64,000 nucleotides of DNA from Candidatus Latescibacterota bacterium (GCA_965261395.1 OZ253462.1:4928001-4992000), one strand, 5' to 3'; counted from the stretch's first letter, positions 29,014-56,456 are shown. The notes: generated by a model not told the origin, from the letters alone. A program made the numbers and translations.

Positions 29014-29026
29014 AAGAAGAGACCCC

Positions 29027-29782
29027 ATGGCAGACATCACCGACATCGCCAACGAATTTATCCGCGAAGAGATCGAAGAGTTCATCGAGCGCGACGAAGA
29101 GCGCGAGCGCATCATCAGCCTCTTTGCCCAAGCCAGCGAACAGATGCAAAACATCGCCGCGGCCCTCATCGACGGTGAGCACCTAACAGTCGACGAGTTG
29201 ACCGGCCAAGCCATTGCCTCGGGCGTGGAGGCCACCGAAGTCATGGACAACGGGCTGATCGCCGGCATGGCTATCGTCGGCATCAAATTCCGCGAAAACT
29301 TCATCTTCGTCCCCGAAGTGTTAGCCTGCGCCCGCGCCATGAAGGCCGGCATGGCCCACATCGAGCCTATTCTCTCGGCCTCGGGCGTCGAGCCGGTCGG
29401 CGTTGTGATCATGGGCACGGTCAAGGGCGATCTCCACGACATCGGCAAAAACTTGTGCATTATGATGCTGCGCGGGTCCGGCTTCGTCGTCCACGACCTC
29501 GGCGTAGATACCTCCGAAGACCAGTTCATCGACGCAGTCGAAGAGCACGGAGCCCCGCTCTTGGGCATGTCGGCCCTGCTGACCACCACCATGCCGAACA
29601 TGGGCAAGACCATCGAGGCCTTCATCGACGCCGACTTGCGCGACGACGTCAAAATCATGGTCGGCGGCGCACCCGTGACCCAGGAATTCGCCGACGACAT
29701 GGGTGCCGACGGCTATGGCAAAGACGCCCTCGCCTGTGTGGCCTTGGCCAAGGACTTGCTGAACGAAATTGAGGACGAGTAG
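29027..29782 (+). CDS. Corrinoid (B12-binding) methyl-carrier protein, MtaC/MttC-like
   Basis: GLIAGM..VG, FVPEVL, GTVKGDLHDIGKNL (DxHxxG), SALLTTTM, VGGAPVT, GADGY. Confidence 0.95.
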   Translation: MADITDIANEFIREEIEEFIERDEERERIISLFAQASEQMQNIAAALIDGEHLTVDELTGQAIASGVEATEVMDNGLIAGMAIVGIKFRENFIFVPEVLACARAMKAGMAHIEPILSASGVEPVGVVIMGTVKGDLHDIGKNLCIMMLRGSGFVVHDLGVDTSEDQFIDAVEEHGAPLLGMSALLTTTMPNMGKTIEAFIDADLRDDVKIMVGGAPVTQEFADDMGADGYGKDALACVALAKDLLNEIEDE

Positions 29783-29797
29783 CGCACCCAGCCTCCC

Positions 29798-31690: not shown

Positions 31691-31697
31691 GAAGGCC

Positions 31698-33315: not shown

Positions 33316-34974
33316 ATGATGCTCTTCCAACAACTAGTGCGCTACCTGTGGGTCGCCTGCTTGGGCACCGCAAGTGGCTGCGACCTCTTGCCGAAACCGC
33401 CCGTAGCGGAAGTAGGGCCTTACCAGATCACCGCCTCTGCGCTGCGGACTTTCGTCGCCGAATGGGCGGGGAGCAGACCCAGCTCGCAGACCGCCGAGCA
33501 AGCCCGTCGGCATTATCTGCAGACCATGATCGACGCCCGTCTATTGCTGGTAGAAGCTCGTTCCCGCGGAATCGATACCACACAGGCCGTGCGCGCAACG
33601 GTTCAGGACGCAATCGACAACCAGGTCAGCGCCCTCTATCGGGCCCGCGAAATCACGGATGCAATCGCAATTCCCGAAGACGAGATTCGCGCCTATTTCG
33701 ACGATGAGGGGTATGGCCTAGAGCGCAAAGTCAGCGGCATACTGGTGGAGAGCCAGAGTGAGGCTGATTCGGTTTTGACCCTATTGCGCGCCGGACGGCC
33801 CTTTGCAGAAGTAGCTGCTGCCTACTCCATAGATGCGCGCTCGGCCCGCCAAGGCGGCGAGCTGGGGTTCATAGGGCGCGACATGGCACCGCGGATCCAC
33901 ATCCCACCGGAGGTTTTCCGCACCCTTCCCCTCGGCACAATCTCGGAACCCATGTACACGGGCAAGTACTGGAACATTGTGCGCTTCACCGAAGAGCGGC
34001 CCGCCTCCTACGACAAGTATCGGGACTCCATCAAAAGGCAGCTCTTTGCAGAGCGATCTGCCCAAGCCACAAGGGAACACCTCGAACTGCTCCAGAACGC
34101 CTCTGAGGTGCGGCTGCGCGAAGAGGCCCTGCAACAGCTAGTAACCGCCTACCGACTACAGGACCTTTCCCCACTGACCGCGGAATCGCTTCCCCTATAT
34201 ACTTTTGACGAAGGCGAGATCACCGTGGCAGCAGCGGTGAAGGTTTTGCAGGAACAAAACATCGGCTCCGGGTTCGCCGACAGCGTTCAGGCAGCCTCCA
34301 CGCTCAAGCGCATCGTACTGAATCCCTTCCTCATCAAAGAGGCCGCACGGCGGGCCGGCTACTACCAAAAACCCGCAATCCAGCGGCTAAAAAAGACCAA
34401 AGAAGAGGAAGCCTTGCTCAACGGTCTCAAAGAGACTATAACGCGGGGAATAGATATATCCGACGCCGACGTGCGCCGCTACTACGACAGCCACCCCGAA
34501 ATTTTTAGCCACGAACCTGCCCTATGGGTTGAGGAACTACTCCTGCCCAGTGCCGACGAGGCTCAAGAAAAGAGCGCGCTGCTAGAAGGTGGTACTCCTT
34601 TTGCCGACCTAGCGGGCAAAAGCTTGCGGTCAGACGCTATTGAGAAGGCCAATCGATTCCATTTCCACCCGCTGGAGAAGGCCGTCTATCCCAAGCTGAT
34701 GGCGGCGGTCGAGGATGCACCCGAGGGCGAACTCGTCGGACCAGTAGCCGTCGAAGGAGGCTTTTCCCTCTTTCGCGTACTCGACCATGAGGATGCCTCC
34801 ATCGAACCCTATGAACAGGTTCGGAGGCGGGCCGCCGCCCTGCTGCGCCTAGAGCGGGAGCACTGGCACCTGCAAGCTCTGTTGAAGAAATTGCGAGAAA
34901 AGTACGCCGCCCAGATCAAGATCGACGAAGCGCGCCTGCGCGAAGCCGTACCCGACAGTCTCCTGCGACGCTAA
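33316..34974 (+). CDS. SurA/PrsA-like peptidyl-prolyl isomerase lipoprotein with two parvulin domains
   Basis: Lipobox-like TASGC; FAEVAAAYSID..SARQGGELGF; second domain PFADLA.KS...LVGPV...GGFSLFRV. Start trimmed from the 32908 ORF. Confidence 0.8.
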   Translation: MMLFQQLVRYLWVACLGTASGCDLLPKPPVAEVGPYQITASALRTFVAEWAGSRPSSQTAEQARRHYLQTMIDARLLLVEARSRGIDTTQAVRATVQDAIDNQVSALYRAREITDAIAIPEDEIRAYFDDEGYGLERKVSGILVESQSEADSVLTLLRAGRPFAEVAAAYSIDARSARQGGELGFIGRDMAPRIHIPPEVFRTLPLGTISEPMYTGKYWNIVRFTEERPASYDKYRDSIKRQLFAERSAQATREHLELLQNASEVRLREEALQQLVTAYRLQDLSPLTAESLPLYTFDEGEITVAAAVKVLQEQNIGSGFADSVQAASTLKRIVLNPFLIKEAARRAGYYQKPAIQRLKKTKEEEALLNGLKETITRGIDISDADVRRYYDSHPEIFSHEPALWVEELLLPSADEAQEKSALLEGGTPFADLAGKSLRSDAIEKANRFHFHPLEKAVYPKLMAAVEDAPEGELVGPVAVEGGFSLFRVLDHEDASIEPYEQVRRRAAALLRLEREHWHLQALLKKLREKYAAQIKIDEARLREAVPDSLLRR

Positions 34975-35152
34975 CAAGCTGTCTGGCAATTCCTAGTGCA
35001 GCTCCAACTCAGCATCCACCGAGATTGTCAGACAGCTTCTAAATCCCTTTACTCAGCCCTGCCAAATTGGTATTCTACACACAAAGTTGATGGGCCAGGA
35101 CCACCTGACCCGTTGAGTAGAGACCCGCCGCCTGCCCAATCAGGAGGTAGCC

Positions 35153-38100
35153 ATGGGACATTCCAGCAAACGACTCGTCCAGTCGTCGCCTCTTTTCTGC
35201 GCCTTGATTTTTTGTCTGAGTTTTCTCGCTGACGGGCGGGAAGCACTCGCCCAGCGCAGCAAAGGATATCGGGTTACCAACAGCAGCATCGTCGTCGAGA
35301 CCGCCGGGCACTGGCGCAACTGGCAGCTACCCGTCCATGCCGTCGATGTACTACCTGAAGGAGGGGTTCGACCCCACCGCTCGCGCCAGCGCTACAATAT
35401 CCTCGACGACCAAGCTACCTTTACCCGCCCCCTGAACGATTTCAGGCGCAAGAAAAACCAGCACGCCATCCTCAATATCGACAGCACCTTCACGCTCGAC
35501 GTACAGGGCAACGTCATTACCGACAAAAAAGACAACCCTCTCTATACCTACTTCGCCCGGCCGGGTATCAGCCGGGTAGGCTCCAATCCGCAAGCAGCGA
35601 AAAACATCCTCGATGGTGATCCGAACACCTACTGGGAACCGGACCGCAACGATCCCCTCGACGACTGGTGGATCGAGGTGGACTTGGGCAGGGTCGTGGC
35701 CGTCGATGAGATTTTGTTGCACTTCGCAAGCGAAGAGCTCGGCGACCCATTCCTGGGCTTCAGGGTTCTAATAGCGACCGACCAAGAAGCCATCATAGAA
35801 GACGCCGCCGAAGTGGACCTAGACCGCATCGGCGGCACGCAGGCACCCAACCGAGACCAGCGCGACTTCAGCTTCGCGGCACCCAACCGAGACCAGCGGG
35901 ATCTCAACTTCCCACTGGAGCAGCCTGAGAGTTCTCCTAGCTGGCGCGGCAGGCTGGTGCAGACCATTCGCATCGTCGTCACCGATACCCGCGCCGGCCG
36001 CGGCACCGAAGTCGATGAAGAGCAGTGGCTAGCGCTCGACCCGTCAGACCGGGGCGACATCGTCTACTTTGTCAAGGACCAGCAGGGTTTTGAGGAACGC
36101 TTGGACCAGAGCCGCCTCGAAGAGCCAGTAGAGACTTTCTACGACAACTTGCCACCCGAAAGGCAGGGAGCTAAAAAATTCTTCATCCGCGAGCGGCCCC
36201 GCCTAGCCGATATCGAGGTTTGGGGCTTTGGCGACAACATCAGCCCGGGGATCGTCAAGGGCGGCGGCAGCCTCTTTCTCTCAGGAGAAAATTTCTCGCC
36301 CGGCCCGGGTTTCGACGGCGACTACAATACCAATTTTATACACCTAGTCTGGTCTCCACTCATTGAGCGCGGCGTGCTGACCGTCGATATGGGTGCTTCC
36401 TTCTTCCTCGACGCCATAGCGGTTTCGACTTCGGGGCGGCGGCGCTTTATCGACGGCTATATCATGCGCGGCTCGGATGGCTCGCGGGATTCCTCCGGCC
36501 GTTTGAAGTGGCACCGCATCAGCCCGCGAGAACGCGAGGACAACAGCGTTGACCGCTACGAGCACCTCCTCGACTCGTATGAAGGGATCGAACTCCGTTT
36601 CCTCGAAATGACCGTCGTCTCCGTGGATCCCCGCCGCCGCGGCGGCTACAATACGGGAGCCGATATCGGCGAATATCAGATCTTTTCCCAAGGCTACCCC
36701 GCCGAGGTAGTGTTGACCTCGGACCTGATCGAATTGCCAGCCATTCGCAACTTCGGTCGCATCACCTACGAAAGCGAGGTCCCACCCGGCACCAACCTCG
36801 AAATTCGCACCCGATCCGGCGATCTGCTGGGCAAAATCATTCGCTACTTCGACAAATCCGGTACCGAACTCACCTTTGATTCCTGGGACGGCTTGCTCGG
36901 TAGCTACAAGGGGCCGATCGATACCTCCTTTGTGCCCGCCAGTGGCTGGAGTCCTTGGAGCCGAACTTATCAGCAGTCGGGAGATCGCGTCACTTCGCCG
37001 GGGTTGCGCAAGTTCATGCAGATCCAAGTCAAAATGGAGACCACAGACCGCAATATTGCCGCGACGGTCAACTCCATAGACATCGAACTCGTCAATCCGG
37101 TAGCCTCCAACATAGTGGCCGAGCTATGGCCGTATGAGGTAAAGGTGCCAGGACGGACCGATACCTTCGAGGTCTTTGTCCAGTCCCAGTTTATAGAGTC
37201 GCCCGCCTCCTCGCGCAGCGTCGGCTTCGACGAAATCCTCCTCGCCATGCCTCCTTCCCAAGATCTGCAACTTCTCGAAGTAGGCATCCAAGACAGCGGG
37301 GTTGGATCGGAGCGGATCTTCTCGCCCTCGGGAGACCCCACCCTCTTTGCCGATGGGGACGGCAGCCAACTCAAACTGCTGAATCCTAACTCCGATTCGC
37401 TCTGGGTGCGCCTGCCCGAATCTCTCAACGCGCTGGTGGACGCTCCCCGCATTTACAACCGCCTCACCTCCGAGGGCGAGCAAGTGCCGGTGACCGCAGA
37501 CGGCCTGTCGCTAACGGACGCAGCCTATGGCCTGCTCGAGGTAGAGGAACAGGGCGATGTCCGCTATTTCCGCCGCACCGTAGACGCCCAAGACGGGATC
37601 ACTCTGTCCGAGGTTTCCCAAGACGCCTACCAAGGACTCGATGCCGACCAGCAGGGTCCGATTCGCTACTTCCGCATCCTGCTCGGCGGTGGTGCCCAAT
37701 TTCCCTTTGATGCAGCGGGAGACTCGCTCGATGTGACGGCCTACAACCGCCTATCCTCCACCTCCCGGGGCATCGTGGTCGCTGCGGGGGCTCTAACGCG
37801 ACTGCGCTTTGCCGCCCCCGTCTTTGTCAACGGCACTACCTTGGAAATGGCCGTGCGCAACACCGGCGGCGGTGCCAATATGGCCGCGCCTTGGCAAAGC
37901 GTCGAAGCCGGCGACGCCACAGCGCTGATAGGCAGCAATGCTCTTTCGATCAACCTGCCACTCGACGCCAAGGCGATTGACGAGTTCCGCATCACTCCCA
38001 ATCCGTTTACTCCCAACGGCGATGGCATAAACGACGAGACTGAAATCCGCTTCTCTGTCTTCAAGCTCACCGCCCCACGACAGGCCCAGGTGCGGGTTTA

Positions 38101-38293
38101 CACGCTGGCGGGTCGCCCGATTTGGGAGCATACCCAGATGCTGCAAAGCGGTCGCGTCAGCGTTTTCTGGGATGGAACAGACCTGAACGGCCGCAAGGTG
38201 CCGCCTGGGCTATACATTTGCCAAGTGAATCTCGACACAGATCGGGAAAGTCGCTCGGCGACGCGGACGCGCTTACTCTCCATCGCCTATTAG
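35153..38293 (+). CDS. Large secreted protein with discoidin/F5-8C-like domains and C-terminal FlgD-Ig (CHU_C-like) domain; paralog A
   Basis: SD AGGAGG; signal peptide; ILDGDPNTYW...WIEVDLGR; PNPFTPNGDGINDE...VYTLAGR...WDGTDLNGRKVPPGLY; ends IAY. Confidence 0.85.
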   Translation: MGHSSKRLVQSSPLFCALIFCLSFLADGREALAQRSKGYRVTNSSIVVETAGHWRNWQLPVHAVDVLPEGGVRPHRSRQRYNILDDQATFTRPLNDFRRKKNQHAILNIDSTFTLDVQGNVITDKKDNPLYTYFARPGISRVGSNPQAAKNILDGDPNTYWEPDRNDPLDDWWIEVDLGRVVAVDEILLHFASEELGDPFLGFRVLIATDQEAIIEDAAEVDLDRIGGTQAPNRDQRDFSFAAPNRDQRDLNFPLEQPESSPSWRGRLVQTIRIVVTDTRAGRGTEVDEEQWLALDPSDRGDIVYFVKDQQGFEERLDQSRLEEPVETFYDNLPPERQGAKKFFIRERPRLADIEVWGFGDNISPGIVKGGGSLFLSGENFSPGPGFDGDYNTNFIHLVWSPLIERGVLTVDMGASFFLDAIAVSTSGRRRFIDGYIMRGSDGSRDSSGRLKWHRISPREREDNSVDRYEHLLDSYEGIELRFLEMTVVSVDPRRRGGYNTGADIGEYQIFSQGYPAEVVLTSDLIELPAIRNFGRITYESEVPPGTNLEIRTRSGDLLGKIIRYFDKSGTELTFDSWDGLLGSYKGPIDTSFVPASGWSPWSRTYQQSGDRVTSPGLRKFMQIQVKMETTDRNIAATVNSIDIELVNPVASNIVAELWPYEVKVPGRTDTFEVFVQSQFIESPASSRSVGFDEILLAMPPSQDLQLLEVGIQDSGVGSERIFSPSGDPTLFADGDGSQLKLLNPNSDSLWVRLPESLNALVDAPRIYNRLTSEGEQVPVTADGLSLTDAAYGLLEVEEQGDVRYFRRTVDAQDGITLSEVSQDAYQGLDADQQGPIRYFRILLGGGAQFPFDAAGDSLDVTAYNRLSSTSRGIVVAAGALTRLRFAAPVFVNGTTLEMAVRNTGGGANMAAPWQSVEAGDATALIGSNALSINLPLDAKAIDEFRITPNPFTPNGDGINDETEIRFSVFKLTAPRQAQVRVYTLAGRPIWEHTQMLQSGRVSVFWDGTDLNGRKVPPGLYICQVNLDTDRESRSATRTRLLSIAY
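35842..35913 (+). repeat. 36-bp in-frame tandem duplication (APNRDQRDFSFA / APNRDQRDLNFP)
   Basis: ggcacccaaccgagaccagcg occurs at 35842 and 35878. Confidence 0.85.
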
Positions 38294-38381
38294 GATTGTT
38301 TGACAGACAAGCGGTTTTGCCATACTTAGTTTTGGTTGTGGGATATTGGTAGTTGTGATCTACTGTTCTGAGGAGGTCGTC

Positions 38382-41063
38382 GTGAAGCGAACGAAAAGCA
38401 CCCGCTCGTTTGTGCTAGCTGTTATGGTCCCATGTTGTCTCCTGTCGCTCCCCCAGCTTGGCACAGCCCAAGAATACGGTGCTCGTCTGGGAACCATCCA
38501 GCCAGACGGCGGAGTTTCCTTCGAGCCTCAAGGGCCTGGGGTCCTCTTCGGTGCCCTCGATCCGGCCAAGCGGAGGTGGTACGTGCCCCAGGAGCTCTAC
38601 AACGAGTACCGGTGGAGCCAATGGGAGTACTCCAACTATGCGCGCCGACACTATGAGCGCTACGTCAGAATCACCACCGAGGGCGATTCCTACTACGACC
38701 TCTACGGCAACTTCGTCACTCGTGGTTGGCTCATCTTTAACAACTCCCAATCTCAGCCCCAGCAGTTCGGCTCCTCGGTCCTCAAAGGCGACAGGTTCCA
38801 AGGCTGGTTCAGCGGCCTGTTGGTCTCGGCCGACGCCAAGGGCCAGCACCACTACTCGGTGACTATCGGCGACAATATCCGCACCACACTTACACCTATG
38901 ACCTTTTCCAAGCCCCGCTGGGACGGCGTCCAGTTCGACTACGCCGCTGACAAGTACCAAGGCACGCTCATTTACTCGCGCCTCAGCCAGCCCGGTGGCA
39001 GCACCACCCGTGACCAAGAAGTCCTCGCCACCAACGCCACCTCCATGATCGGCGGGCGCGGCACTGTGCAGGTGGGCGACTTCGCCACCCTAGGCTTGAC
39101 GGCCGTCAACTCCCACCAGTCCAACACCCTCATCAGCGGCTTCAGGGGCAACCCCGTCACCGGCAAACTCACTATCGACCAGAACCAGACGATTTCCTTC
39201 ATCGAAATCGTGCTACGCGACGACTCGCCCGAAGACCAAGTCGGCGGTGCTGCTTTCTTCCCCACTGGCTCCGATATCATCATTACCTACAACAACGGCA
39301 CGGTGGATCGGGGCAAGGATATCCGCTTCGAGCCGATCATCGAGGGCGGCTTTATCCGCCGAGGCTTCCTCTCGGCCGATGGCACCGAGGAAATCCGCCT
39401 GCGCTACGACTTCGACAGCCCAGCTTTTGTCAATCGTTCATCTGGGGCTAAGGAGGAAATCAAAAACGTCGAGTTCCGTCTAGTGCTGGGCAATGACTAC
39501 CAAGTCTGGGTCTCTTCGAACAACCAACTCAACGTCTCGGATGTCTCGGTGCTCTTACTAGTCGCCCAAGCCGAGGGCAATGTCCAAGACAACACCAACT
39601 TGCAGGTCGTCAGCTTCGAGTACGGTTTGCCCACGGCGACCCAAATCTGGGGTGCCACTCTCGAATTAGAAGAAGCTCTGGGCTTCAACTTCTACGGTGA
39701 ATACGACTTGAGTTACTCGTATGTCCAGTACCCCAACGTACTGCGCAAGAGCCACTTGGCCTCCTCGGGCCTTCGCGGCGACCGGGCGGCACCAGCTTGG
39801 ATGGTCAATCTCTCGCGCAACACGTATCCCTGGTTTGTCTTCGGCGAGGCCTACAGCATGGATCCGCGCTACAACACCAGGACCTTCACCACGCTGAGTT
39901 CCGGCTTTATTGACTACGAGGATGAGCGCGTCCACGTAGTCGAGCTCGTCGAGGACAACGATGACCAAGACCGCTATCCCGACACCGTGCGCAAGGACTG
40001 GCGTGCCGGCGACCAAGAAGTCTATCCCGGCTGGGACGAGAACAACGACTTCATCTCCGACTTCAACCAAAACGACAATCGCTTCCTCTCCAACTCCGTA
40101 CCCGACTACGAAGAGCCTTTCCTCCGCCACAACGTCGACCGTCCCGAGTTTCTCTTCGGCATCGATCTCAACAACAATGTCTGGATTGACCGCTTTGAAA
40201 ACGACGAGGCTCCCGACTACCCCTACAAGAAGGACCATCGGGGGTTCAACGTGTACGGCGGTATACACCTGACGCCAGAGGTCCGGCTGATGGCCGGGGT
40301 TCTGCGCGAAGATATCATCTCCTCGAATCAAAAAAACCGCGTTGACTACGTGCTTTTCACCCTCGACAAATCCACGCCTAACTGGGGCCGCTTTCGCTTC
40401 TTTGAGATGCTCAAGTCGGTCGAAGACGACATTCCCGACGACCTGCAGCAGTGGTTGCCCAACGCCAATATCCGCACCGGCGAGTCCACCAAAATCGAGG
40501 ACCCCCTCATCGCTCGCGACACCTATATCAACGCCCTGTGGTTGGGCCACGACTATCAGCACGGTGGCTTCATCGCCAAGAACTTCCTCAAATACGATAC
40601 GTATTACCAGCGCCTCGACGAAGACCAACGCGCCCCCTTAGGCTTGCGCCAGCGCGACTTTTTCTTTGGCTTCATCAACAAGGTGAGCTACCGCCTCGAC
40701 CTAGGCCGACTCTGGGTCGAGCCGCGCTGGAAGAGCGAGTACCGCAAACAGACCATCGACCTACTTTCGCAGGAAAGACGGACCGAACTTGCCGAGATCG
40801 GCGGTTTCCTACTGGGCTTTCCCATGCTCCAGCACACGACTCTGCAGCTCGGCTTGGAGTTCACCTTCGTCAACGATTTCGAGCGCGACCTCAACGACTT
40901 CAACAGCATCGTCGGGGCTGCCCAGTTCACTAATGTATCCGACTATCTGGGCTACAAGCTCACCACGCAGATGGGCATGCGGATAGACCGCCGCAACCCC
41001 AAGGACGGCGAATCGGAAACCATCACCGAAAGCTTCATCGCCGTTTACGCTGGCCTGCAATAA
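38382..41063 (+). CDS. Large exported hypothetical protein, probable outer-membrane beta-barrel with Asp-rich Ca-binding-like loops
   Basis: GTG after GAGGAGG; signal peptide; alternating aromatic/hydrophobic strands in the C-terminal third; EDNDDQDRYPD, WDENNDFISD, IDLNNN motifs. Confidence 0.7.
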   Translation: MKRTKSTRSFVLAVMVPCCLLSLPQLGTAQEYGARLGTIQPDGGVSFEPQGPGVLFGALDPAKRRWYVPQELYNEYRWSQWEYSNYARRHYERYVRITTEGDSYYDLYGNFVTRGWLIFNNSQSQPQQFGSSVLKGDRFQGWFSGLLVSADAKGQHHYSVTIGDNIRTTLTPMTFSKPRWDGVQFDYAADKYQGTLIYSRLSQPGGSTTRDQEVLATNATSMIGGRGTVQVGDFATLGLTAVNSHQSNTLISGFRGNPVTGKLTIDQNQTISFIEIVLRDDSPEDQVGGAAFFPTGSDIIITYNNGTVDRGKDIRFEPIIEGGFIRRGFLSADGTEEIRLRYDFDSPAFVNRSSGAKEEIKNVEFRLVLGNDYQVWVSSNNQLNVSDVSVLLLVAQAEGNVQDNTNLQVVSFEYGLPTATQIWGATLELEEALGFNFYGEYDLSYSYVQYPNVLRKSHLASSGLRGDRAAPAWMVNLSRNTYPWFVFGEAYSMDPRYNTRTFTTLSSGFIDYEDERVHVVELVEDNDDQDRYPDTVRKDWRAGDQEVYPGWDENNDFISDFNQNDNRFLSNSVPDYEEPFLRHNVDRPEFLFGIDLNNNVWIDRFENDEAPDYPYKKDHRGFNVYGGIHLTPEVRLMAGVLREDIISSNQKNRVDYVLFTLDKSTPNWGRFRFFEMLKSVEDDIPDDLQQWLPNANIRTGESTKIEDPLIARDTYINALWLGHDYQHGGFIAKNFLKYDTYYQRLDEDQRAPLGLRQRDFFFGFINKVSYRLDLGRLWVEPRWKSEYRKQTIDLLSQERRTELAEIGGFLLGFPMLQHTTLQLGLEFTFVNDFERDLNDFNSIVGAAQFTNVSDYLGYKLTTQMGMRIDRRNPKDGESETITESFIAVYAGLQ

Positions 41064-41073
41064 CTTTGGCCTT

Positions 41074-43344: not shown

Positions 43345-43353
43345 AATCCGCGT

Positions 43354-45471: not shown

Positions 45472-45603
45472 GGCAGCACTCCAATGTAACCGAGACGGCG
45501 GCGGCTGTTGGCAGCCAGCGCTTGTAAAATGACTTTTGGAACCGAGTTGATATCGCTTTATTATATATAAAATCTCGTCCCCCAGTTCAAGGAAGGATGA
45601 GCC

Positions 45604-47727
45604 ATGCCTAGATTTTTGTCTTTCTGTGTCTGCACGGTCCTATTCGCCGCTGCTCAGGTAAACGCCCGCACCGAATACCATCTGGGCGGTGCGGACGGCC
45701 CGTCCTGGCAGGACGTTCGCAGCCAAGCCGAAGTGGGGGCGTATCTGGTCTATGACGCCAACGGCGAGTTGCTCAAGAGCATCGCTGTGGGCACGGCCCC
45801 GCAAGAGACGGGTGGGGATACCCTCGTCGATTTTTCCGACAGCTCCATCCGCCCCCGCTTCATCGATCCGCTCGAAAATTTGGCCCTGACCGATCTAAGC
45901 GCCGCGTCGAACGAAGTCCCCCTGAATTTCACTGGGGGGGAGGTCAGCGTATCCTACGGCAATGGGACTTCGGCTTACAATTGCCTCTTCGCCGGCAACA
46001 ACGCCCCCCTCAACAAGCTCATGCTCGACGCCAATCCCGTATCCGCCCAGTTCCGTCCCTTCTCGCAGGACCCTAACAAAGCACCGGGCATCGGCTTAGG
46101 GCGCCCTTTCTACGATGTCATCATATTCGATTTCGGTGCCAATGTGCCGATTAACCGCATTCGCTTCTATCCGCGCCTCAGCCAAGAGGAAGACCGCCTA
46201 CTGATCGAAAATTTTGCCGAGCCCAAACCTCCCCTTGAGTCTTTTGGCGAAGACAGCTTCGCTGATAATTTCGTGGGCTGGTTTGATATCCGCATGGGCG
46301 ACGCTTCGCTGCCCTTCCAAGACGGTGCGTGCGGGCGCACGCCCGGCAGGCGCTGGATTAAAAGGAACGACCCCTTGCTGACCGTGCTGCACTCCACCCG
46401 CGAAAACCTCGACGTGGTGACCGATCTGCGCTTCAAGAGGCAGTCCATCCGCTTTCTCACCTTCCAAGCCTTTCCCTTGGGCAACTGGGAACTCGCCGAG
46501 TTTGAAATCTACGGCGAGGGCTTTGTCGAAGAGATGACTTACATCACCCAGATCTTGGACTTCGGCCGCCCGATTAGCTGGGGCCAGATCCGCTGGAACG
46601 GCGAGTTGCCCGAGGGCGTACGGGCGGAGATCCGCACCCGCACTGGGCATACCCCCGACCCCAAACTCTACTTCGCCCCCAACAACAACGGCGATCTAGA
46701 CCAAATCACCCTGAAGGAGTACTTAAAGATCGACGCGCTGTCCCGCCTGCCCACCGAGTATGATACCGAAAATTGGAGTTTCTGGTCGCCGCCCTACGAT
46801 TTCGCGGCCGGCTTGCGCGACGAGACTTTGCCCGCCGAAGCCTGGCAAGACGGCACTCCCCTGCTCTCGCCAGGGCCTAGCCGCTATATTCAGATCGCCG
46901 TTAAATTTCTTTCTGCCCCCTTTGCCGCCCCCCGGCTGGATCAGCTCTCACTACAGTTGAGTGAGGCACCTTCGGCCCAAGAAGTCGTCGGCGAGATTTG
47001 GCCCATCGAAGTGGACTCCTTCGAACCTACCACCTTCACCTATGTGGTGCTGCCCTCCTTCGAGACGGACAATATCGGCTTCAACCACCTAGAAATTCTC
47101 ACTCACGCCCGGGTCGATACTATCGAAGCGGTCGTACTCGACGGGACCAGAGTGGATCCTAGCCTCTTCCCCTATGAGATCCTCGATGACCGGATCGTGA
47201 TCGAATTTCCAGAGATAAAGGGCGAAGAGGATAGCTTCAAGCAGTTGGAGGTGATCTTCAACGCGCCCGTGCTGAGCTTCGGCACCGAATTCAGTAGCTG
47301 GGTTTTCAACAGCGAGGACCCCGATCAGATCCGCCAGCAGGTCCGGCCTGGCAACGCCACCTTTCGTTTTTCCGGCGATGTTCTCGCCGTTAAAACTCCG
47401 GTGGGCGGCAATTTGCTGGTCAATGTGGAAGTCGGCCCCAACCCCTTTACGCCCAATGGCGACGGCCTCAACGAGACGCTAACTATCTCCTACAGTTTGC
47501 GCGAGGTGGCAACGGATCGCACGGTCTCTGTGCATATCTACAATCTAGCCGGGCAAGAGGTGGCCACATTGCCCCCAACGCGGTCTCGCAGCGGGCAGTT
47601 CCGCCAAGAGTGGGACGGCACCGACGCCAACGGCCAGCGCGTCCCTCCGGGGCTCTACCTATACGAACTATCTCTCGATGTCGAGCAAGGAGACAGAAAA
47701 ATGGGGTTCCTCGCGGTGGCGTATTAA
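45604..47727 (+). CDS. Secreted FlgD-Ig domain protein; paralog C
   Basis: Signal peptide; DFGANVPINRIRFYPR, EFEIYG.GF, IRTRTG, WSFWS, GEIWP; PNPFTPNGDGLNE...YNLAG...WDGTDANGQRVPPGLY; ends VAY. Confidence 0.85.
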   Translation: MPRFLSFCVCTVLFAAAQVNARTEYHLGGADGPSWQDVRSQAEVGAYLVYDANGELLKSIAVGTAPQETGGDTLVDFSDSSIRPRFIDPLENLALTDLSAASNEVPLNFTGGEVSVSYGNGTSAYNCLFAGNNAPLNKLMLDANPVSAQFRPFSQDPNKAPGIGLGRPFYDVIIFDFGANVPINRIRFYPRLSQEEDRLLIENFAEPKPPLESFGEDSFADNFVGWFDIRMGDASLPFQDGACGRTPGRRWIKRNDPLLTVLHSTRENLDVVTDLRFKRQSIRFLTFQAFPLGNWELAEFEIYGEGFVEEMTYITQILDFGRPISWGQIRWNGELPEGVRAEIRTRTGHTPDPKLYFAPNNNGDLDQITLKEYLKIDALSRLPTEYDTENWSFWSPPYDFAAGLRDETLPAEAWQDGTPLLSPGPSRYIQIAVKFLSAPFAAPRLDQLSLQLSEAPSAQEVVGEIWPIEVDSFEPTTFTYVVLPSFETDNIGFNHLEILTHARVDTIEAVVLDGTRVDPSLFPYEILDDRIVIEFPEIKGEEDSFKQLEVIFNAPVLSFGTEFSSWVFNSEDPDQIRQQVRPGNATFRFSGDVLAVKTPVGGNLLVNVEVGPNPFTPNGDGLNETLTISYSLREVATDRTVSVHIYNLAGQEVATLPPTRSRSGQFRQEWDGTDANGQRVPPGLYLYELSLDVEQGDRKMGFLAVAY

Positions 47728-47761
47728 TGAATTCTGTAGGCGTGCTATAGGCGAGACTTGT

Positions 47762-47790
47762 TTGACATTTTTTTGTGATTGTCTTAGGGT
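47762..47790 (+). promoter_or_regulatory. Sigma70-like promoter upstream of the CBM9-like gene
   Basis: TTGACA at 47762, 17-nt spacer, TAGGGT at 47785. Confidence 0.55.
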
Positions 47791-47941
47791 ATAGCCAAAT
47801 TTTGTCAGTCACAGCCAAACTATCCACAAGCCGGTCGTTGAAAGGAGGTTTTCTCGACAGGCGATTTATTCGCAACGCATCCCTCTACTCAAATCTGGTC
47901 CCATGACCGATATCCCCATATTCTGAGGAGATTTTCTCAAC

Positions 47942-48829
47942 ATGCAAAAAATCGCAAAAGGACTGATGATCCTGCTAGTATCGGCTGGGCTCGCTAGCGC
48001 CCACAACCCTCCGGGTGAATTGTTCTTTCTCTTTCAGTTCCCCGATAGCGCTGTGCCGACCATAGACGGCGACCTTTCCGACTGGAATATCGTTCCAGAC
48101 AGACCCTATGTGATCCGCAGCGACAAGCTCTACGACCCAGCTCAGTTCAACGAAGCGGGTCGCGGCGAGCTCGATCTCAGCGACTTCAACCCGCTGCACA
48201 TCCTCGGTTGGAACGAAAGTTTCAACAAGCTCTACTTCGCCAACCAAGTATTTGACAACATCCACAATATCGACCGCGAAGATCCGGCCCGCCATTGGGA
48301 TGACGACAACTGGGAGGTCGAAGTCAACCCGACCCACCTAGCCGCCGACGAGCAGAATCTCACCGCCGAGCCGGTAAACCGGATTGCCTATAAATGGGTC
48401 GTGCCGCCGCTCGAAGGCGTCTATCAGTCGCTCGAGCCCATCGGCAACCTAGCTTGGCTTTCGGACGGGGGCGACTTTACTTCGTACGGCTGGTCTTTCG
48501 ATGGCGATCAGTTCGGCGAAAGCACCTATTACTATGAACTAGGTATTACGCCGATTGCCGAGATTCCCCGGGAGGGTGCCACGCCCGACAATATCGAGAT
48601 TTACGACCTCGAAGAGGACGATATCATCCACATCTCGATCAACAACGGCGATATTGACGCGCCCCAGTCCGACCACGCCTATAATGGTTTCTGGGGCACC
48701 ACCCCGGAGAGCAGCAATATCGCGCTCAACGACTTTGTCCTCGCTCCGATCGAAGAGGGCATTGACTTTTCGGAGACGAGTGTCGAAGCAACCAGTTGGG
48801 GCCAGCTCAAGAGTAGCTTGGGCCGATAA
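47942..48829 (+). CDS. Secreted acidic protein with CBM9/DOMON-like domain and C-terminal TSVEATSWGQLK motif
   Basis: SD GAGGAG; signal peptide (LASA); PTIDGDLSDW...GWN...KLYF...D...WDDD.WEV, a CBM9-like pattern. Confidence 0.7.
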   Translation: MQKIAKGLMILLVSAGLASAHNPPGELFFLFQFPDSAVPTIDGDLSDWNIVPDRPYVIRSDKLYDPAQFNEAGRGELDLSDFNPLHILGWNESFNKLYFANQVFDNIHNIDREDPARHWDDDNWEVEVNPTHLAADEQNLTAEPVNRIAYKWVVPPLEGVYQSLEPIGNLAWLSDGGDFTSYGWSFDGDQFGESTYYYELGITPIAEIPREGATPDNIEIYDLEEDDIIHISINNGDIDAPQSDHAYNGFWGTTPESSNIALNDFVLAPIEEGIDFSETSVEATSWGQLKSSLGR

Positions 48830-48846
48830 ACCCACCTGTTAGCTCC

Positions 48847-51822
48847 TTACTCACCTCCAAGTCCCCGTTTCGCTTCTGTCTGCGAAACGGGGACTTTCTT
48901 TTTGACGAGCTTTTCGCGGGCTAAGCGCAACTGATCCGCCACTCGAGGATAGCGAGGATCCAACCGCAGTACGGCCTCCCACTCGCGAATGGCCGCTGCG
49001 TACTGCCCCTGTGCGGCATACACCTGTGCCAGAGCGTCGCGAGCCTCGACTAGAGTGGGATCGACATTCAGGACCATCTTGAAGGCCTCCACGGCCTGAT
49101 CCAAGTCGCCCCGTTGGGCATAGGCCATACCTAATTTAGTCCGCACTGCCTGCATACCTGACTGCAACACCAGAGCCCGATGATAGGCGGCGATAGCCCG
49201 TTCATAGTTGCGGAGCTGGTGATAGGCCTGGCCCAGATCGGCAAAGGCCCCCACCATATCCGGCTGTAGCTCGCAGGCTCGTTCATAGGCCTCAATCGCG
49301 GCTTGCAATTCGTTCTTGTAGTGCAGTGCGGCACCCAAGCCGTAATGAGCCGGCGCATAGCTAGAATCGATGGCGATGACCTGACGAAAAGTGGTAAGGG
49401 CCTCCTCAATGCGCCCCTGGGCCATGTAGGCTTCGCCCAACAGATGGCGAGATTCGATATCGCCTGGGAAGGCGACTAGGTTCTCCAGATGGCGCTGCAC
49501 TTTGTCTTGTACAGGCCGCAACTGCGCGAAAATTTGCCGCTGCCGCGCGGCCGCCTGCTCCCTCCCCTGGCGCTCATAGATACGGGCTAAATTCAGGTGT
49601 GGATGCGGCTGCCACGGTGCCTGGCGCACTGCGTGCTCAAAGGCCGAGATCGCCGCCGTCAGATTTTCACTGCGGAGCTGGGCCAGTCCCAGTCGGTTAT
49701 AGTTCTCCCACTCAGGGTCCAGTGCCACAGCGCGCTCAAGTAACTGAATGGCCCTGTCTTTGCGGTTGAGGTCCATATAGACCACTCCCAAAAGCGGATA
49801 GACCTGTGCCCACGACGAATCGCGGGCCACCACCTCTTCCAAAACCGCCGCTGCCTCCTCGGCTCGGCCCAACCCCGAATAGAGTGCAATACCCAAGGAG
49901 TAGTAGGTTTTGAGATCATCCGGCTCCATGCGGATAGACGTTTTTAAGGCGTCAATCGCCTCCTCGTAGCGCCCCTGTCTGTACCGTTCGATTCCCACTT
50001 TATAGTGGTCTGCGGCAGTCTGGTCGTCCCCTGCTGCGTAGTGGGGGACAGCCGGCTGGCTGGCTATTTGGACTGGCTGCTCACGTGCTATCAAGTCCTC
50101 TGTATCCGCCGGCCCGACATAACTAGAAACTATGCCCTCTTCCCCTTCCTGCACCACCAAGTAGCGCCGAGTCTCCGGTCGCTCCAATACCTGCACCCGG
50201 CCACTAGGCCAACGGATCTCTACGCTCTCCACTTCCTCGGCCGCTCCCAACCCGAAGAGCACCCGGCCGTCGCTTTGCGATAAGTACCCGACTCCGCGCT
50301 GTACTTCTCGCATCTGCTGTCCATTATCCGCAAAAAGTGCGACCCGTGCCCCCTGTGCATCGCGGTTGCTCTCCGTGCCCACCAGCTCTAGCCCCAGCCA
50401 ATTGCTACGGCTCCCGCCGCGATTGTGCAAAAGAGTCGGCGCGTCGTTCAGGTTCATTACCAGTAGGTCCAGATCGCCGTCATTATCGTAGTCGCCCAGT
50501 GCCCCGCCGCGACTGACCTTTTCTTCGGCAAAGCCCCGCCCAACCATAGCCCCTACTTCGACAAACGTCCCACCCGCATTCTGGTAGAGCAAGTTTCGCT
50601 GAGCGTAGCGCAGTCCCGAAGGATGCTGGGCGACTTGGGGGTAGATGTGCCCGTTGACCGCGAACAGGTCCAGCCAGCCATCGTTGTCGTAGTCGAAAAA
50701 GCCCGTGCTCCAGCCTAGGTAGGGCCGCACCTCACCTCCCAACCCTGTCGCCGCAGTGAAATCGACGAAGTTGCCGTCTCCCTGATTCTGATACAGCGTG
50801 TTGACGTCGTCCGAAAAGTGGGTCATGTACAGATCCAGATCGCCATCGTTGTCGTAGTCGCCGGCCGCCGCACCCATGCCGGCCTGCGCCCGTCCATCCT
50901 CGCTGTAAGCCGCCCCAGCAAAGGCCGCCACTTCCGCCAGTTGCCAATGTCCGTCGTTGCGATAGAGCAGGTTGGGGTAGCCGTCGTTGGCCACATAGAG
51001 GTCCTGGTCACCGTCGTTGTCGCTGTCGAAAAAAACCACCCCCAAGGATGCCTGCTTGTCTGAGTCAATCCCCGTCGTCTGGCTCATATCCGCAAAGCCG
51101 AACCCGCCCTCGTTGCGGTAGAGCACGTTGGCCTGGGGCACCATGCCGTGCGGACCGCAATAGACGTCCAGCCCCTTGAAGCCACTACAGAGCTGGCCGC
51201 CGCCGGGTGGGTTTTCCAAGTCGAAGACCAAATAGTTAGCCGCGTATAGATCCAAGAATCCGTCCGCATCCACGTCTCCAAACGCCGCGCTGGTCCCCCA
51301 GCCTCCGTCCTCCACCCCCAACTCGACCACGACAAACCTGCCCCCGTCGTTGCGATAGAGCACATTGGGGCCCCAATAGGTGATGTACAGGTCCACATCG
51401 CCATCGTTGTCGTAATCCCCCACTGCGCACCCCATTCCCCAACCCGTCCGCCGCAGATCAGCCTCGTCGGTTTTGTCTTGGAAGATGCGCCCATTGGCTC
51501 CTTCGGTGTTGCGGTAGAGCCGATTGGTGGGATTCAAAGAATCGGCCTCCACCTGCGTACTATTGACCAAGAATAGATCGAGATACCCATCGCCATCGTA
51601 GTCGAAAAAGGCGGCACCCGACGACATCGATTCGAGAATATAGTGCTGCTCTGCGCTACCGGAGACCTGGCGAAAATCGAGACCGACGGCCTCGGTCACA
51701 TCGACGAACTGCACTCCGGGAATCACCGTTTCGACTTCTGCTTCTGGCTCGCATCCTACTCCCAACATCAGGCTTACAAGCCCAATGCCGGCGATCCATC
51801 TACGTATCAGTTTCATTACCAT
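48847..51822 (-). CDS. CRTAC1-family FG-GAP + ASPIC/UnbV lipoprotein with C-terminal TPR array
   Basis: Lipobox LGVGC; repeated DYDNDGD.DL; NRDAQGARV...GYLSQ...FGLG...IRWPSG; many TPRs. Confidence 0.9.
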   Translation of the reverse strand: MVMKLIRRWIAGIGLVSLMLGVGCEPEAEVETVIPGVQFVDVTEAVGLDFRQVSGSAEQHYILESMSSGAAFFDYDGDGYLDLFLVNSTQVEADSLNPTNRLYRNTEGANGRIFQDKTDEADLRRTGWGMGCAVGDYDNDGDVDLYITYWGPNVLYRNDGGRFVVVELGVEDGGWGTSAAFGDVDADGFLDLYAANYLVFDLENPPGGGQLCSGFKGLDVYCGPHGMVPQANVLYRNEGGFGFADMSQTTGIDSDKQASLGVVFFDSDNDGDQDLYVANDGYPNLLYRNDGHWQLAEVAAFAGAAYSEDGRAQAGMGAAAGDYDNDGDLDLYMTHFSDDVNTLYQNQGDGNFVDFTAATGLGGEVRPYLGWSTGFFDYDNDGWLDLFAVNGHIYPQVAQHPSGLRYAQRNLLYQNAGGTFVEVGAMVGRGFAEEKVSRGGALGDYDNDGDLDLLVMNLNDAPTLLHNRGGSRSNWLGLELVGTESNRDAQGARVALFADNGQQMREVQRGVGYLSQSDGRVLFGLGAAEEVESVEIRWPSGRVQVLERPETRRYLVVQEGEEGIVSSYVGPADTEDLIAREQPVQIASQPAVPHYAAGDDQTAADHYKVGIERYRQGRYEEAIDALKTSIRMEPDDLKTYYSLGIALYSGLGRAEEAAAVLEEVVARDSSWAQVYPLLGVVYMDLNRKDRAIQLLERAVALDPEWENYNRLGLAQLRSENLTAAISAFEHAVRQAPWQPHPHLNLARIYERQGREQAAARQRQIFAQLRPVQDKVQRHLENLVAFPGDIESRHLLGEAYMAQGRIEEALTTFRQVIAIDSSYAPAHYGLGAALHYKNELQAAIEAYERACELQPDMVGAFADLGQAYHQLRNYERAIAAYHRALVLQSGMQAVRTKLGMAYAQRGDLDQAVEAFKMVLNVDPTLVEARDALAQVYAAQGQYAAAIREWEAVLRLDPRYPRVADQLRLAREKLVKKKVPVSQTEAKRGLGGE
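48859..48903 (+). terminator. Intrinsic terminator for the 47942 gene, lying inside the 3' end of the convergent gene
   Basis: 15-bp stem AAGTCCCCGTTTCGC / GCGAAACGGGGACTT followed by TCTTTTT. Confidence 0.85.
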
Positions 51823-51982
51823 AGCGGCTTCTGCGGCTTCTATAGTCTGTAATTAGAGGAAGTGGCTCTGGTCACTGCCCAAAATACGCAATAACGTGCA
51901 AAAATAAACCCATCGTCTGTCATTGCGATTGACCGTATATTTTTTGTAGAAAACAGGCATCTACCCAAACACCGAATAACTC

Positions 51983-54196
51983 ATGCGAAATCCCCTAGGC
52001 TTCCTTGCCCTCAACCCCCTATATGCGATGGTCCTGGCCCTCGCATCAGCCCTCGCTCCGCCGACCTTCGCCGACGTACGATTGCCCAAGATATTTGGCG
52101 ATCACATGGTATTGCAGCGCGATAGCCCCCTGCCCGTCTGGGGTTGGGCTGAGCCTGGGGAACAGGTCAGCGTCGAATTTCTCGACCAAGTCACCAGTAC
52201 CAGCGCCAATGCTCAAGGCGAGTGGAAGGTAGAATTGCCACCAACCAAAGCCGGTGGCCCCCATGCGCTGACAGTAACAGGCACCAACAGCATTGAATTG
52301 CAGGACGTGCTCGTCGGCGAGGTGTGGCTCTGCTCGGGGCAATCGAATATGGAAATGGGCGTCGGGCTCTGCCTCAACCCAGAAGCGGAAATCGCCGCCG
52401 CCGACCATCCACAGCTCCGTCTCTTCCAGATTTCCAAGAAACTCAACGCTGAACCGCAAAAGGATGTCGAGGCCGACTGGACCCGCTGTACCCCGGAGAC
52501 CATTGCCAAGGGTGGCTGGGGCGGGTTTTCGGCTACTGCCTATTATTTTGGTCGCCACTTGCAGCACGAGCTCGACGTGCCCATCGGCCTAATTCAGGCA
52601 GCTTGGGGCGGCACCCGCATTGAACCCTGGATCCCGCCCGCCGGTTTTGCCGCAGTACCCGCGGTGAGCGATATCTACGAGCAGCTACAACTGCAAAATC
52701 CACGCAGCGACCAGTACAAAGAGCGCCTAGACACGGTATTGGACGAAGTCGAAGACTGGCTCCGCGCGGCCCGCACGGCGCGACAAAGCGAAGCACCAGT
52801 AGCGGAAATGCCGACCTATCCCCTCGAACTCCTGCCGCCAAACGGCCCGCAGCAACCCGCCGTGCTCTACAACGCCATGATCCACCCCCTCGTCCCATTT
52901 GCCTTGCGCGGTGCCATCTGGTACCAAGGCGAGTCCAACCACACCGAAGGCATGCTCTATACCGAGAAAATGAAGGCGCTCATTGAGGGCTGGCGCAGCC
53001 TTTGGCCGGGCGGGGCGTTCCCGTTCTACTATGTGCAGATCGCCCCCTTCGCCTATGGCGGCGAACCACCCAGCCTACTACCCAAATTCTGGGAAGCGCA
53101 AACGGCCGCGCTGGCAATTCCCCACACCGGCATGGCTGTCATCCACGATGTCGGCGATCTCGGCGATATTCACCCCAAAAACAAGCAGGAGGTCGGGCGG
53201 CGCTTGGCACTAATGGCATTGGCCAAGACCTATGGCCAAGAGCTGATCTACTCAGGTCCACTCTACCGCTCACTGCGGATCAAAGACGACAAAATCTATT
53301 TGCGCTTTTACCACAGCAGCGGCCTGAAGACGCGCGACGGTGCTCCGCCGGATCATTTTACAGTGATCGACCAAGAACGCGGCGGATTCGTCAACGCAAG
53401 GGCCGCAATAGTTGGAGATGAAATCGTCGTCTCGGCACCGGGAGTCGCAAACCCAATCGCGGTGCGCTTTGCTTGGCACAAGCTGGCCGAACCCAACCTG
53501 ATCAACGCCGCCGGCCTACCCGCCGCCCCATTCCGCGCTGGCACCGTGCCCCAACGCGATCTGCTCGAAATGGAAGTGCCCGAAGCGGGCGACTATAGCC
53601 TCGTTTACGACCTCGATCTGGCCAATCTCGGCGTGGATATCCACTACGACGTCGACAATAGTGCCGCGATCACCGCGCCTTTTGACCGCATCGCCTATTT
53701 TGTGGAATTGCAACCCAGCGATGGCGAAATGCGCTTTCTATACGTTTCGCTGGATGCCTTTACCGACGATCTCAAAATGATTGGCGTGCCGACCTTAGTC
53801 TCGGGTGCCCACTTCCAACAACCCGGCACCCGAATAAACGTCTGGTCCAACACGGGCGTGCAAAACGGCATCGGCCTGGAAGGAGGCCGCATCGAATTCT
53901 GGCCCAACAACTACACCCCAGCCAACGCTGCTGCCGTGCCCGGCGCCTCTCAGCAGAGCTACGACTTTGGCGACCAACCAATAGACCCCGCCGATGGCTA
54001 TGGCAGTATGCAGCTACACAACGCCACGGCTGAACAGACGCTCTTTGCCATCAACCACTGGCGCCGAGGCGAGCGCACTGATATCGGCATTGGCAATCGG
54101 GCTGAGAAAAACTCCGATTGGACTTTTGCCGGCAATGCCCAGAGCTACTCTGCCAAAAGACTGAGAGTACTGGTGCGGAATCTCGATAGACGATGA
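51983..54196 (+). CDS. Sialate O-acetylesterase (SASA) family protein with extra C-terminal domain
   Basis: DHMVLQR, GEVWLCSGQSNM, WGGTRIE.W, WYQGESN, DIHPKNK, NLIN..GLPA.PFR. Confidence 0.9.
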   Translation: MRNPLGFLALNPLYAMVLALASALAPPTFADVRLPKIFGDHMVLQRDSPLPVWGWAEPGEQVSVEFLDQVTSTSANAQGEWKVELPPTKAGGPHALTVTGTNSIELQDVLVGEVWLCSGQSNMEMGVGLCLNPEAEIAAADHPQLRLFQISKKLNAEPQKDVEADWTRCTPETIAKGGWGGFSATAYYFGRHLQHELDVPIGLIQAAWGGTRIEPWIPPAGFAAVPAVSDIYEQLQLQNPRSDQYKERLDTVLDEVEDWLRAARTARQSEAPVAEMPTYPLELLPPNGPQQPAVLYNAMIHPLVPFALRGAIWYQGESNHTEGMLYTEKMKALIEGWRSLWPGGAFPFYYVQIAPFAYGGEPPSLLPKFWEAQTAALAIPHTGMAVIHDVGDLGDIHPKNKQEVGRRLALMALAKTYGQELIYSGPLYRSLRIKDDKIYLRFYHSSGLKTRDGAPPDHFTVIDQERGGFVNARAAIVGDEIVVSAPGVANPIAVRFAWHKLAEPNLINAAGLPAAPFRAGTVPQRDLLEMEVPEAGDYSLVYDLDLANLGVDIHYDVDNSAAITAPFDRIAYFVELQPSDGEMRFLYVSLDAFTDDLKMIGVPTLVSGAHFQQPGTRINVWSNTGVQNGIGLEGGRIEFWPNNYTPANAAAVPGASQQSYDFGDQPIDPADGYGSMQLHNATAEQTLFAINHWRRGERTDIGIGNRAEKNSDWTFAGNAQSYSAKRLRVLVRNLDRR

Positions 54197-55421: not shown

Positions 55422-55523
55422 CGCGTTGGTCATTGTTGTCCTTATCCCGTAGATTAAAAATTGAGTTTAGGACGGGATTTGTTGCCGTCGGCCTGCAGAT
55501 CGCCAACGGAAAGGAGGGTCGAT

Positions 55524-56441: not shown

Positions 56442-56456
56442 ACGGAGACAAGCCCC

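Follow-up and report, generated by a model that had tools for sequence, protein, structure and literature searches.

The locus described here raises a question: do nine consecutive long open reading frames (ORFs), lying between 33.3 and 54.2 kb of a 64,000-nucleotide stretch of a Candidatus Latescibacterota chromosome, form a single cell-surface system, and if so, of which kind? The whole stretch, referred to below as the window, corresponds to bases 4,928,001-4,992,000 of a single-contig 6.55-Mb genome. A preliminary description had read the nine genes as a modular outer-membrane complex and a non-Sus analogue of a polysaccharide utilization locus (PUL). All nine ORFs were confirmed at their proposed coordinates and encode what had been described, but the unit that recurs elsewhere comprises seven genes, namely, PPI, A, B, C, BAR, GT-C/TPR, and CBM9-like. 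This cassette is an undescribed, phylum-specific variant of type IX secretion system (T9SS)-dependent surface machinery with PUL-like genomic behavior, and its function is putative.

Protein family scans were performed with Pfam and NCBIfam, and bit scores were judged against the curated cut-offs. The window carries the following features.

33316..34974, plus strand: PPI, two parvulin domains (Rotamase_2 71.6 bits, cut-off 27; Rotamase 43.9, cut-off 21.7)
35153..38293, plus strand: A, 1046 aa (F5_F8_type_C 38.3, cut-off 28.2; CHU_C 33.8, cut-off 27)
38382..41063, plus strand: BAR, ~890 aa, predicted giant outer-membrane beta-barrel
41074..43344, plus strand: GT-C/TPR (PMT_2 42.0, cut-off 26.1; C-terminal TPRs)
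43354..45471, minus strand: B, 705 aa (CHU_C 24.5, under the cut-off of 27)
45604..47727, plus strand: C, 707 aa (CHU_C 47.7, FlgD_ig 50.4)
47942..48829, plus strand: CBM9-like, 295-aa exported protein with no Pfam or NCBIfam match
48859..48896, unstranded: terminator, hairpin with a 15-bp stem (9 GC pairs), then a T-run
48847..51822, minus strand: CRT, lipoprotein-like (FG-GAP_3, UnbV_ASPIC, and TPRs by Pfam)
51983..54196, plus strand: SASA-family carbohydrate esterase (Pfam SASA 64.0, cut-off 24.8)

Recurrence of the cassette in the genome and the phylum

Each of the nine proteins was searched against the complete set of 23,000 ORFs in the genome (six frames, 80 aa or longer), and paralogs were kept only where the match extended past the shared C-terminal domain or the TPRs. 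This search returned 46 paralogs of BAR, 42 of class A, 38 of class B, 64 of class C, 30 of PPI, 25 of CBM9-like, 12 of GT-C, and 53 of CRT, with the SASA esterase matching itself only (1). The 46 BAR genes group into 32 cassettes, which together occupy 483,768 bp, or 7.4% of the chromosome. At least one A, B, or C paralog was present in 31 of these cassettes (class B in 28, class C in 27, and class A in 25 of 32), PPI was present in 23, CBM9-like in 18, and GT-C in 7, and all six core types occurred together in 18. Most PPI paralogs (23 of 30) reside inside cassettes, and 18 of the 53 CRT paralogs were located within 5 kb of one. Recurrence in this genome, one of the checks that the preliminary description had called for, is far beyond chance.

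Two layouts were observed: PPI-A-BAR-GT-C-B-C-(BAR)-CBM9-like, which is the type found in the window, and CBM9-like-C-A-B-BAR-BAR-PPI. The identity of each BAR copy to the window copy tracks that of its partners, with Spearman rho highest for A (0.84) and CBM9-like (0.82), followed by B (0.79), C (0.73), and PPI (0.64; n = 17 to 27 across partners), indicating that the unit duplicated and diverged as one block. Divergence among the cassettes is ancient (23-75% identity), and every one of them is intact. Eukaryote-like repeat proteins were also seen inside the module: one cassette (L033, G000:C1:373476-392553) holds three small proteins with Receptor L domain matches, and another (L047) carries a leucine-rich repeat (LRR) protein between core genes.

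Across other genomes, a BAR profile built from 36 sequences was run on species-representative genomes and found relatives in at least 576 of 658 pattern-matched stretches. The titles of the best 75 BAR loci are almost all Latescibacterota, along with some metagenome-assembled genomes labelled Gemmatimonadetes, Gemmatimonadota, or Gemmatimonadaceae, one Handelsmanbacteria, one unclassified 'uncultured bacterium', and one Woeseia bin. When the nine window proteins were compared with these 75 loci by tblastn, several loci ending at contig ends, the number of loci with a match was 68 for A, 67 for B, 62 for GT-C, 58 for C, 56 for CBM9-like, 55 for PPI, and 15 for CRT, and there was none for SASA. 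The order of genes was the same as in the window, and the cassette was syntenic in 75/75 loci examined, so that its proposed recurrence extends to other genomes. The nine-gene scope was not borne out: CRT is an occasional accessory neighbor and not a core member, and the SASA esterase, for which the genome offers a single weak paralog, is a locus-specific neighbor outside the recurring unit.

Next, 81 genomes sampled across the phylum were scored for BAR at E 1e-20. BAR was detected in 46 of the 81, including all 14 other sampled genomes of the window's own family, and was absent from two families of the same class (0/24 and 0/6 genomes). SprA was found in 75 of the 81 genomes, including all 30 of these BAR-less ones. 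SprA is thus nearly phylum-wide but BAR is missing from two families, which makes the cassette an accessory user of the T9SS rather than a core part of it. The 30 genomes of the two BAR-less families (f2 and f3, e.g., G007 and G051) are 82-100% complete, with 26 of them at 95% or above. Their condition looks like a lineage-wide loss, or else an acquisition of the cassette after the split.

The predicted barrel and its candidate T9SS cargo

The window BAR protein matched no Pfam or NCBIfam model, PorP_SprF included. In the BAR alignment, none of the 36 members rose above any Pfam cut-off and one weakly matched Pfam SlpA_C (E 0.0027), and the BAR profile retrieved no PDB sequence at E up to 1. 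Clustering at 50% leaves 732 representatives of the family (E up to 0.001), and all 120 close relatives among the matches listed are unnamed or 'hypothetical'. Judged by these searches, BAR is a large family of predicted outer-membrane proteins, outside Pfam and without a relative of solved structure.

An AlphaFold2 model of BAR computed from the 36-sequence alignment (mean predicted local distance difference test score [pLDDT] 71.4, predicted TM-score [pTM] 0.64) displayed long beta hairpins. Its best Foldseek match was the Deinococcus SlpA barrel (8agd, 7zgx, E 4e-6), followed by MtrB (E 3e-5) and TonB-dependent transporters. A VIA search, which is independent of Foldseek, placed the FimD usher on top (Z 9.8 over 311 aligned residues), ahead of SlpA (8.6), AlgE (8.1), porins, and LptD (7.0); lower down came 4y25, a polysaccharide secretin (Z 5.7), and PelBC (Z 5.4). 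Membrane barrels make up all of the best VIA matches and all Foldseek matches through rank 21, as well as most below it. BAR is therefore predicted to be a large outer-membrane beta-barrel with a signal peptide, as the preliminary description had suspected, with roughly 24-30 strands as estimated from the strand list of the model. The model further places an inserted beta-sandwich at about residues 268-467 and an Asp/Asn-rich loop with many invariant positions at about 525-615, and the N-terminal segment is strongly conserved and modelled at low confidence.

The candidate cargo consists of A, B, and C. B and C are evident paralogs (33% identity over 593 residues, E 2e-66), and A and C have in common the C-terminal domain (CTD; 34%) and a middle module (E 3e-12), in line with the three paralogs sharing one CTD that had been described. 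CHU_C scored above its cut-off for A and C and under it for B. The AlphaFold2 model of C (pLDDT 86, pTM 0.73) shows, in order, an N-terminal beta domain, a CBM32 domain, more beta-sandwiches, an Ig-like domain, and the CTD. Residues 88-307 were assigned to a CBM32 jelly roll (VIA 4a42_B, Z 13.7, rmsd 2.2, 123 aligned) and residues 459-600 to an Ig-like sandwich, and residues 601-707 superpose on the CTD of PorU (6za2_B, Z 13.1, rmsd 2.2, 98 aligned, 24% identity) and on that of PorZ (Z 11.0). A T9SS-type CTD had been proposed for these proteins, and the superposition supports it. A sequence profile of the C family searched against the PDB likewise returned CBM32 (7jnb, E 8e-13), FlgD, and the PorU tail, and the best Foldseek match of C was the archaeal S-layer protein 7ptp (E 7e-9); no catalytic fold appeared among the top fold matches. 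By sequence and model, A and C are thus predicted to carry CBM32/F5_F8_type_C jelly-roll domains with putative sugar binding.

The genome encodes recognizable parts of the T9SS, namely, SprA (594.9 bits over a 2164-aa frame), PorU (618.4 bits versus a cut-off of 420), and PorV (61.8 bits), which adjoins PorU. At least 50 further ORFs, drawn from 220 first-look candidates, match only the C-terminal ~100 positions of PorU, which identifies this tail as a genome-wide sorting signal; 144 bearers of the CTD belong to classes A, B, and C. A complex prediction of BAR (95-893) with the CTD of C (598-707) returned 0.00 in two runs, a value that weighs neither way on binding.

Partner proteins and genomic surroundings

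PPI contains two parvulin domains, both above cut-off. Its signal peptide starts at 33316, the longest ORF beginning at 32908, and a lipobox-like ...TASGC site was read by eye. SurA_N_3 was weak (19.4 versus 27), and all NCBIfam peptidylprolyl isomerase equivalog models scored far under their cut-offs, which leaves PPI in no named orthologous group. The protein resembles a SurA/PrsA-type, lipoprotein-like chaperone at the sequence level, and the two-parvulin lipoprotein chaperone of the preliminary description stands. GT-C/TPR is a subfamily-specific member of the cassette, present in 62/75 external loci but in 7/32 cassettes here. It probably glycosylates exported proteins, by analogy with PMT/TMTC-type enzymes.

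The CBM9-like protein had been named for a likeness that found weak support. The window copy matched no Pfam or NCBIfam model and thus not CBM9_1 (PF06452), whereas 4/17 paralogs matched CBM9_1 at E up to 0.1 (best 2e-4), 9/88 homologues carry a precomputed PF06452 match, and the family profile weakly recovered the CBM9 structure 1i82 from the PDB (E 0.1). Two features are conserved. A His directly follows the AxA end of the signal peptide in 16/17 paralogs, with a second near-invariant His in DxDHSG, and all copies in the 17-paralog alignment end with TAVExxSWGxIK plus 3 to 8 residues. Among 80 full-length public homologues, the AxAH pattern was present in 67 and the C-terminal motif in 70. 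If cleavage occurs where it appears to, the mature protein would start with His, which suggests a metal or haem site. The C-terminal tail resembles a tag for docking or sorting of a kind not described so far, and the motif matched no NCBIfam model. In its strict form, this motif ends 41 ORFs in the genome, of which 23 are CBM9-like and 18 are others, mostly small (~80-450 aa). Motif-bearing ORFs lie within 6 kb of a cassette in 24 of 41 cases, and 23 of the 32 cassettes have one.

To characterize the neighborhoods, we compared 125 of the 237 unlabelled ORFs located within 5 kb of the 32 cassettes with Pfam. Besides four DUF6785/DUF6784 proteins and numerous proteins with TPRs only, they included three sulfatases with one formylglycine-generating enzyme (FGE), two SSF symporters and ABC binding proteins and permeases, GFO/IDH/MocA oxidoreductases, UxuA, MR_MLE enzymes, PhyH oxygenases, GDSL esterases, and M28 and S58 peptidases. 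Transporters, sulfatases, and sugar-acid enzymes are common around the cassettes. DUF6785 (PF20581; DUF6784 is PF20580) has 56 copies in the genome (e.g., C1:3360933-3362441), and the members of this polytopic membrane family have nine or more hydrophobic segments. A copy was found within 6 kb of 16 of the 32 cassettes, whereas 2000 random placements gave 6.1 on average and never more than 14.

In the window, the block splits a corrinoid-dependent methyl-transfer gene set, the flanks of which (27979-33269 and 54393-57446) encode URO-D-like, B12-binding, RACo, and MTHFR proteins upstream and a pterin-binding protein and a homocysteine S-methyltransferase downstream. GC content changes from ~0.62 outside the block to 0.58 inside. 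A recent insertion into the corrinoid cluster was considered and rejected: the junction B12-binding, RACo, MTHFR, PPI is common to the two closest genomes (L090 and L091), so that the placement of the block is older than their split from the window genome. The terminator proposed for the CBM9-like gene was recovered as a strong hairpin between this gene and the convergent CRT gene, and the proposed promoter of its own was not, the region containing three promoter-like sites versus 6.9 expected from shuffled sequence. Further downstream, the window holds a single 828-aa ORF (61291-63777, plus strand) in which apolipoprotein N-acyltransferase domains (LNT_N, CN_hydrolase) occur together with a full TatC domain, an unusual putative fusion.

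Putative function and relation to known systems

Two kinds of known systems resemble the cassette most closely. In Flavobacterium johnsoniae, SprB/SprF pairs a type-B CTD cargo with a cognate barrel of the PorP/SprF family. The cassette similarly sets cargo with a CHU_C-like CTD beside a barrel gene, in a genome that encodes SprA, PorU, and PorV. Unlike PorP/SprF, a Pfam family of ~273 positions, BAR is ~890 aa long and belongs to no known family. The cassette also differs from such pairs in having three cargo classes per barrel, accompanied by a parvulin chaperone and a CBM9-like protein and in many cases by GT-C/TPR, in being multiplied 32-fold, and in CTDs that score under the TIGR04131 cut-off. 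With the Sus PULs of Bacteroidota, it shares a high number of divergent copies in each genome, a large barrel of the outer membrane combined with surface proteins that carry carbohydrate-binding modules, and variable transporter, sulfatase, esterase, and catabolic neighbors. In contrast to Sus PULs, the cassette lacks SusD as well as any Plug or TonB-dependent receptor domain, its binding proteins are candidate T9SS cargo and not lipoproteins, few glycoside hydrolases lie near, and no sensor/regulator pair consistently accompanies it. As had been described, the nine proteins gave no Pfam match to Plug, TonB_dep_Rec, or SusD; the genome encodes 22 Plug-domain proteins, none of which is in any cassette. 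The module would function like a type-B cargo with its barrel and is PUL-like in its genomics, but is a member of neither group.

The explanation we favor, to which we give about an even chance, is that the cassette is a T9SS-dependent, non-Sus module for the capture and uptake of glycans or glycoconjugates. It builds on what was observed, namely, the genes and their folds, the recurrence of the cassette, its divergence as a block, the T9SS parts, and the enrichment of certain neighbors. Three lectin-like cargos, one or two giant barrels, a chaperone, and a small partner are multiplied beside transporters and catabolic genes, a PUL-like pattern that leads us to favor capture and import. Under this model, A, B, and C would be exported by Sec, possibly glycosylated in the periplasm where GT-C/TPR is present, and would pass the outer membrane via the T9SS, steered by their CTD. 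On the surface, they would act as three different lectin-like subunits with CBM32-type domains, held at or on the co-encoded BAR, while the PPI chaperone would aid the folding or insertion of BAR or of the proteins associated with it. The CBM9-like protein, which would bear a His at its N-terminus and a tag at its C-terminus, may act within the barrel or from the periplasm. A captured glycan or glycoconjugate would then cross BAR and be passed to inner-membrane transporters encoded next door, in many cases a DUF6785 protein, an ABC system, or an SSF symporter. What we infer here is that A, B, and C reside on the surface and assemble on BAR, which way transport runs, and what class of substrate is involved.

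A more elaborate proposal is that Latescibacterota possess a nutrient-import machine of their own, with no relation to SusCD or TonB-dependent transporters, in which a barrel of 24-30 strands would be capped by a T9SS-delivered A/B/C hetero-trimer, served by the parvulin chaperone, equipped with a CBM9-like protein bearing a His1 metal site (histidine-brace or haem-ligand), connected to a DUF6785 feed, and marked by TAVExxSWGxIK as a docking or sorting tag. We regard this full version as rather unlikely.

Several observations weigh against capture and uptake. An energy source for import through BAR is not apparent. Classical glycoside hydrolases were rare among the scanned neighbors, with one GH2-like fragment only, and given this scarcity of classical CAZymes, glycan uptake is a step that we can only infer. 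The cassette of the window has its nearest DUF6785 gene 143 kb away. BAR was missing from 35 of the 81 sampled genomes, including 30/30 of the two families that keep SprA, which makes the module dispensable. The BAR model is of moderate quality, with TM-scores to known barrels of only 0.14 to 0.29, and its first ~100 residues and the Asp-rich loop fall below pLDDT 50. On the side of secretion, the four Gld models (TIGR03517, TIGR03523, TIGR03513, and TIGR03525) had no match: those for GldL, GldM, and GldN matched nothing in the genome and were equally silent in the control genomes, and that for GldK gave no match at E 1e-20, the control genomes not being silent. The T9SS core genes named in the preliminary description were thus found in part: SprA, PorU, and PorV are present, and GldK, L, M, and N gave no match. 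The type-B model with a dedicated barrel held by half, in that a CHU_C-like CTD occurs beside a barrel gene, but TIGR04131 (type-B CTD, cut-off 35) stayed at 21.6 bits for A, 22.4 for B, and 31.0 for C, and PorP/SprF (PF11751) had no match anywhere in the genome, with the controls silent too. Models trained on Bacteroidota for GldK/L/M/N and PorP/SprF do not recognize such proteins here at the sequence level, and the T9SS motor of the phylum may be too divergent to recognize, or different.

Adhesion or display alone would account for part of the same evidence. BAR would then be an outer-membrane anchor for cognate T9SS cargo, a stand-in for PorP/SprF, and the cassettes an adhesin repertoire without transport, directed at particles, host matrix, or other cells. 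Strings of CBM32 and Ig-like beta-sandwiches are typical of adhesins, and both the CHU_C-type CTD beside a barrel gene and the missing PorP/SprF match (silent in the controls) fit this role. However, at ~890 aa and ~24-30 strands the barrel greatly exceeds the size required of an anchor, catabolic genes and families of inner-membrane transporters are over-represented next to the cassettes, and the conserved exported CBM9-like partner and the dedicated chaperone suggest more than display. We consider this alternative possible but doubtful.

Transport in the opposite direction, with GT-C/TPR and the barrel exporting or assembling a surface glycoconjugate or exopolysaccharide that A, B, and C organize, recalls the TPR-plus-barrel pairs AlgK/AlgE, PgaA, BcsC, and PelBC. 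BAR adjoins GT-C/TPR in 62/75 external loci, and its fold matches AlgE (Z 8.1), 4y25 (Z 5.7), and PelBC (Z 5.4), but these matches are generic (Z <10), GT-C occurs in only 7/32 cassettes here, and the nine genes include no cytoplasmic glycosyltransferase, synthase, flippase, or polymerase. We consider outward biogenesis quite improbable. A variable surface coat appears very unlikely as well. There, BAR would be an S-layer-type base like Deinococcus SlpA (SDBC complex), with A, B, and C as coat subunits that vary against phages or hosts. SlpA is the best Foldseek match of BAR and 1/36 family members weakly matches SlpA_C, and the best match of C is an archaeal S-layer protein. Nevertheless, the TM-scores are 0.15 to 0.17 (0.17 for BAR against SlpA), BAR has no SLH match, SlpA is a single abundant gene whereas the cassette is multi-copy, and the anciently diverged, intact cassettes resemble substrate-specialized loci and not switchable variants.

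The fold of BAR also matches the 24-26-strand barrels of LptD/LptE, MtrB/MtrA/MtrC, and FimD, and like FimD it has, by the model, a beta-sandwich inserted within the barrel sequence; it shows no sequence relation to these systems, and the nine genes match no LptE or cytochrome family in Pfam. A chaperone-usher system was rejected, the likeness of BAR to FimD being one of fold only, with no PapD-type chaperone or pilin family among the nine genes.

Taken together, these comparisons leave a set for which no characterized system accounts, as the preliminary description had anticipated. Its wider interpretation, a modular outer-membrane complex and non-Sus PUL analogue, is partly supported by the recurrence, the predicted barrel, the CTD, and the T9SS parts, but not in its nine-gene scope or its type-B model. 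Our literature search found no paper describing the cassette, none joining Latescibacter* with 'type IX secretion', and none naming DUF6785, DUF6784, or PF20581. For outer-membrane uptake, the available portion of Youssef et al. 2015 (PMC4454575) assumes non-specific porins, and that of Chen et al. 2020 (PMC7081726) does not mention an outer-membrane system.

How Latescibacterota move polymers over the outer membrane is a gap that the module may address. These bacteria are widespread uncultured degraders, and a module that fills 7% of a genome and is kept in most of the phylum probably has a central place in how the cell lives. It would also widen the role of the T9SS from the secretion of enzymes and adhesins to repeated, barrel-centered surface machines, and it gives both DUF6785 and the new C-terminal motif a testable context.

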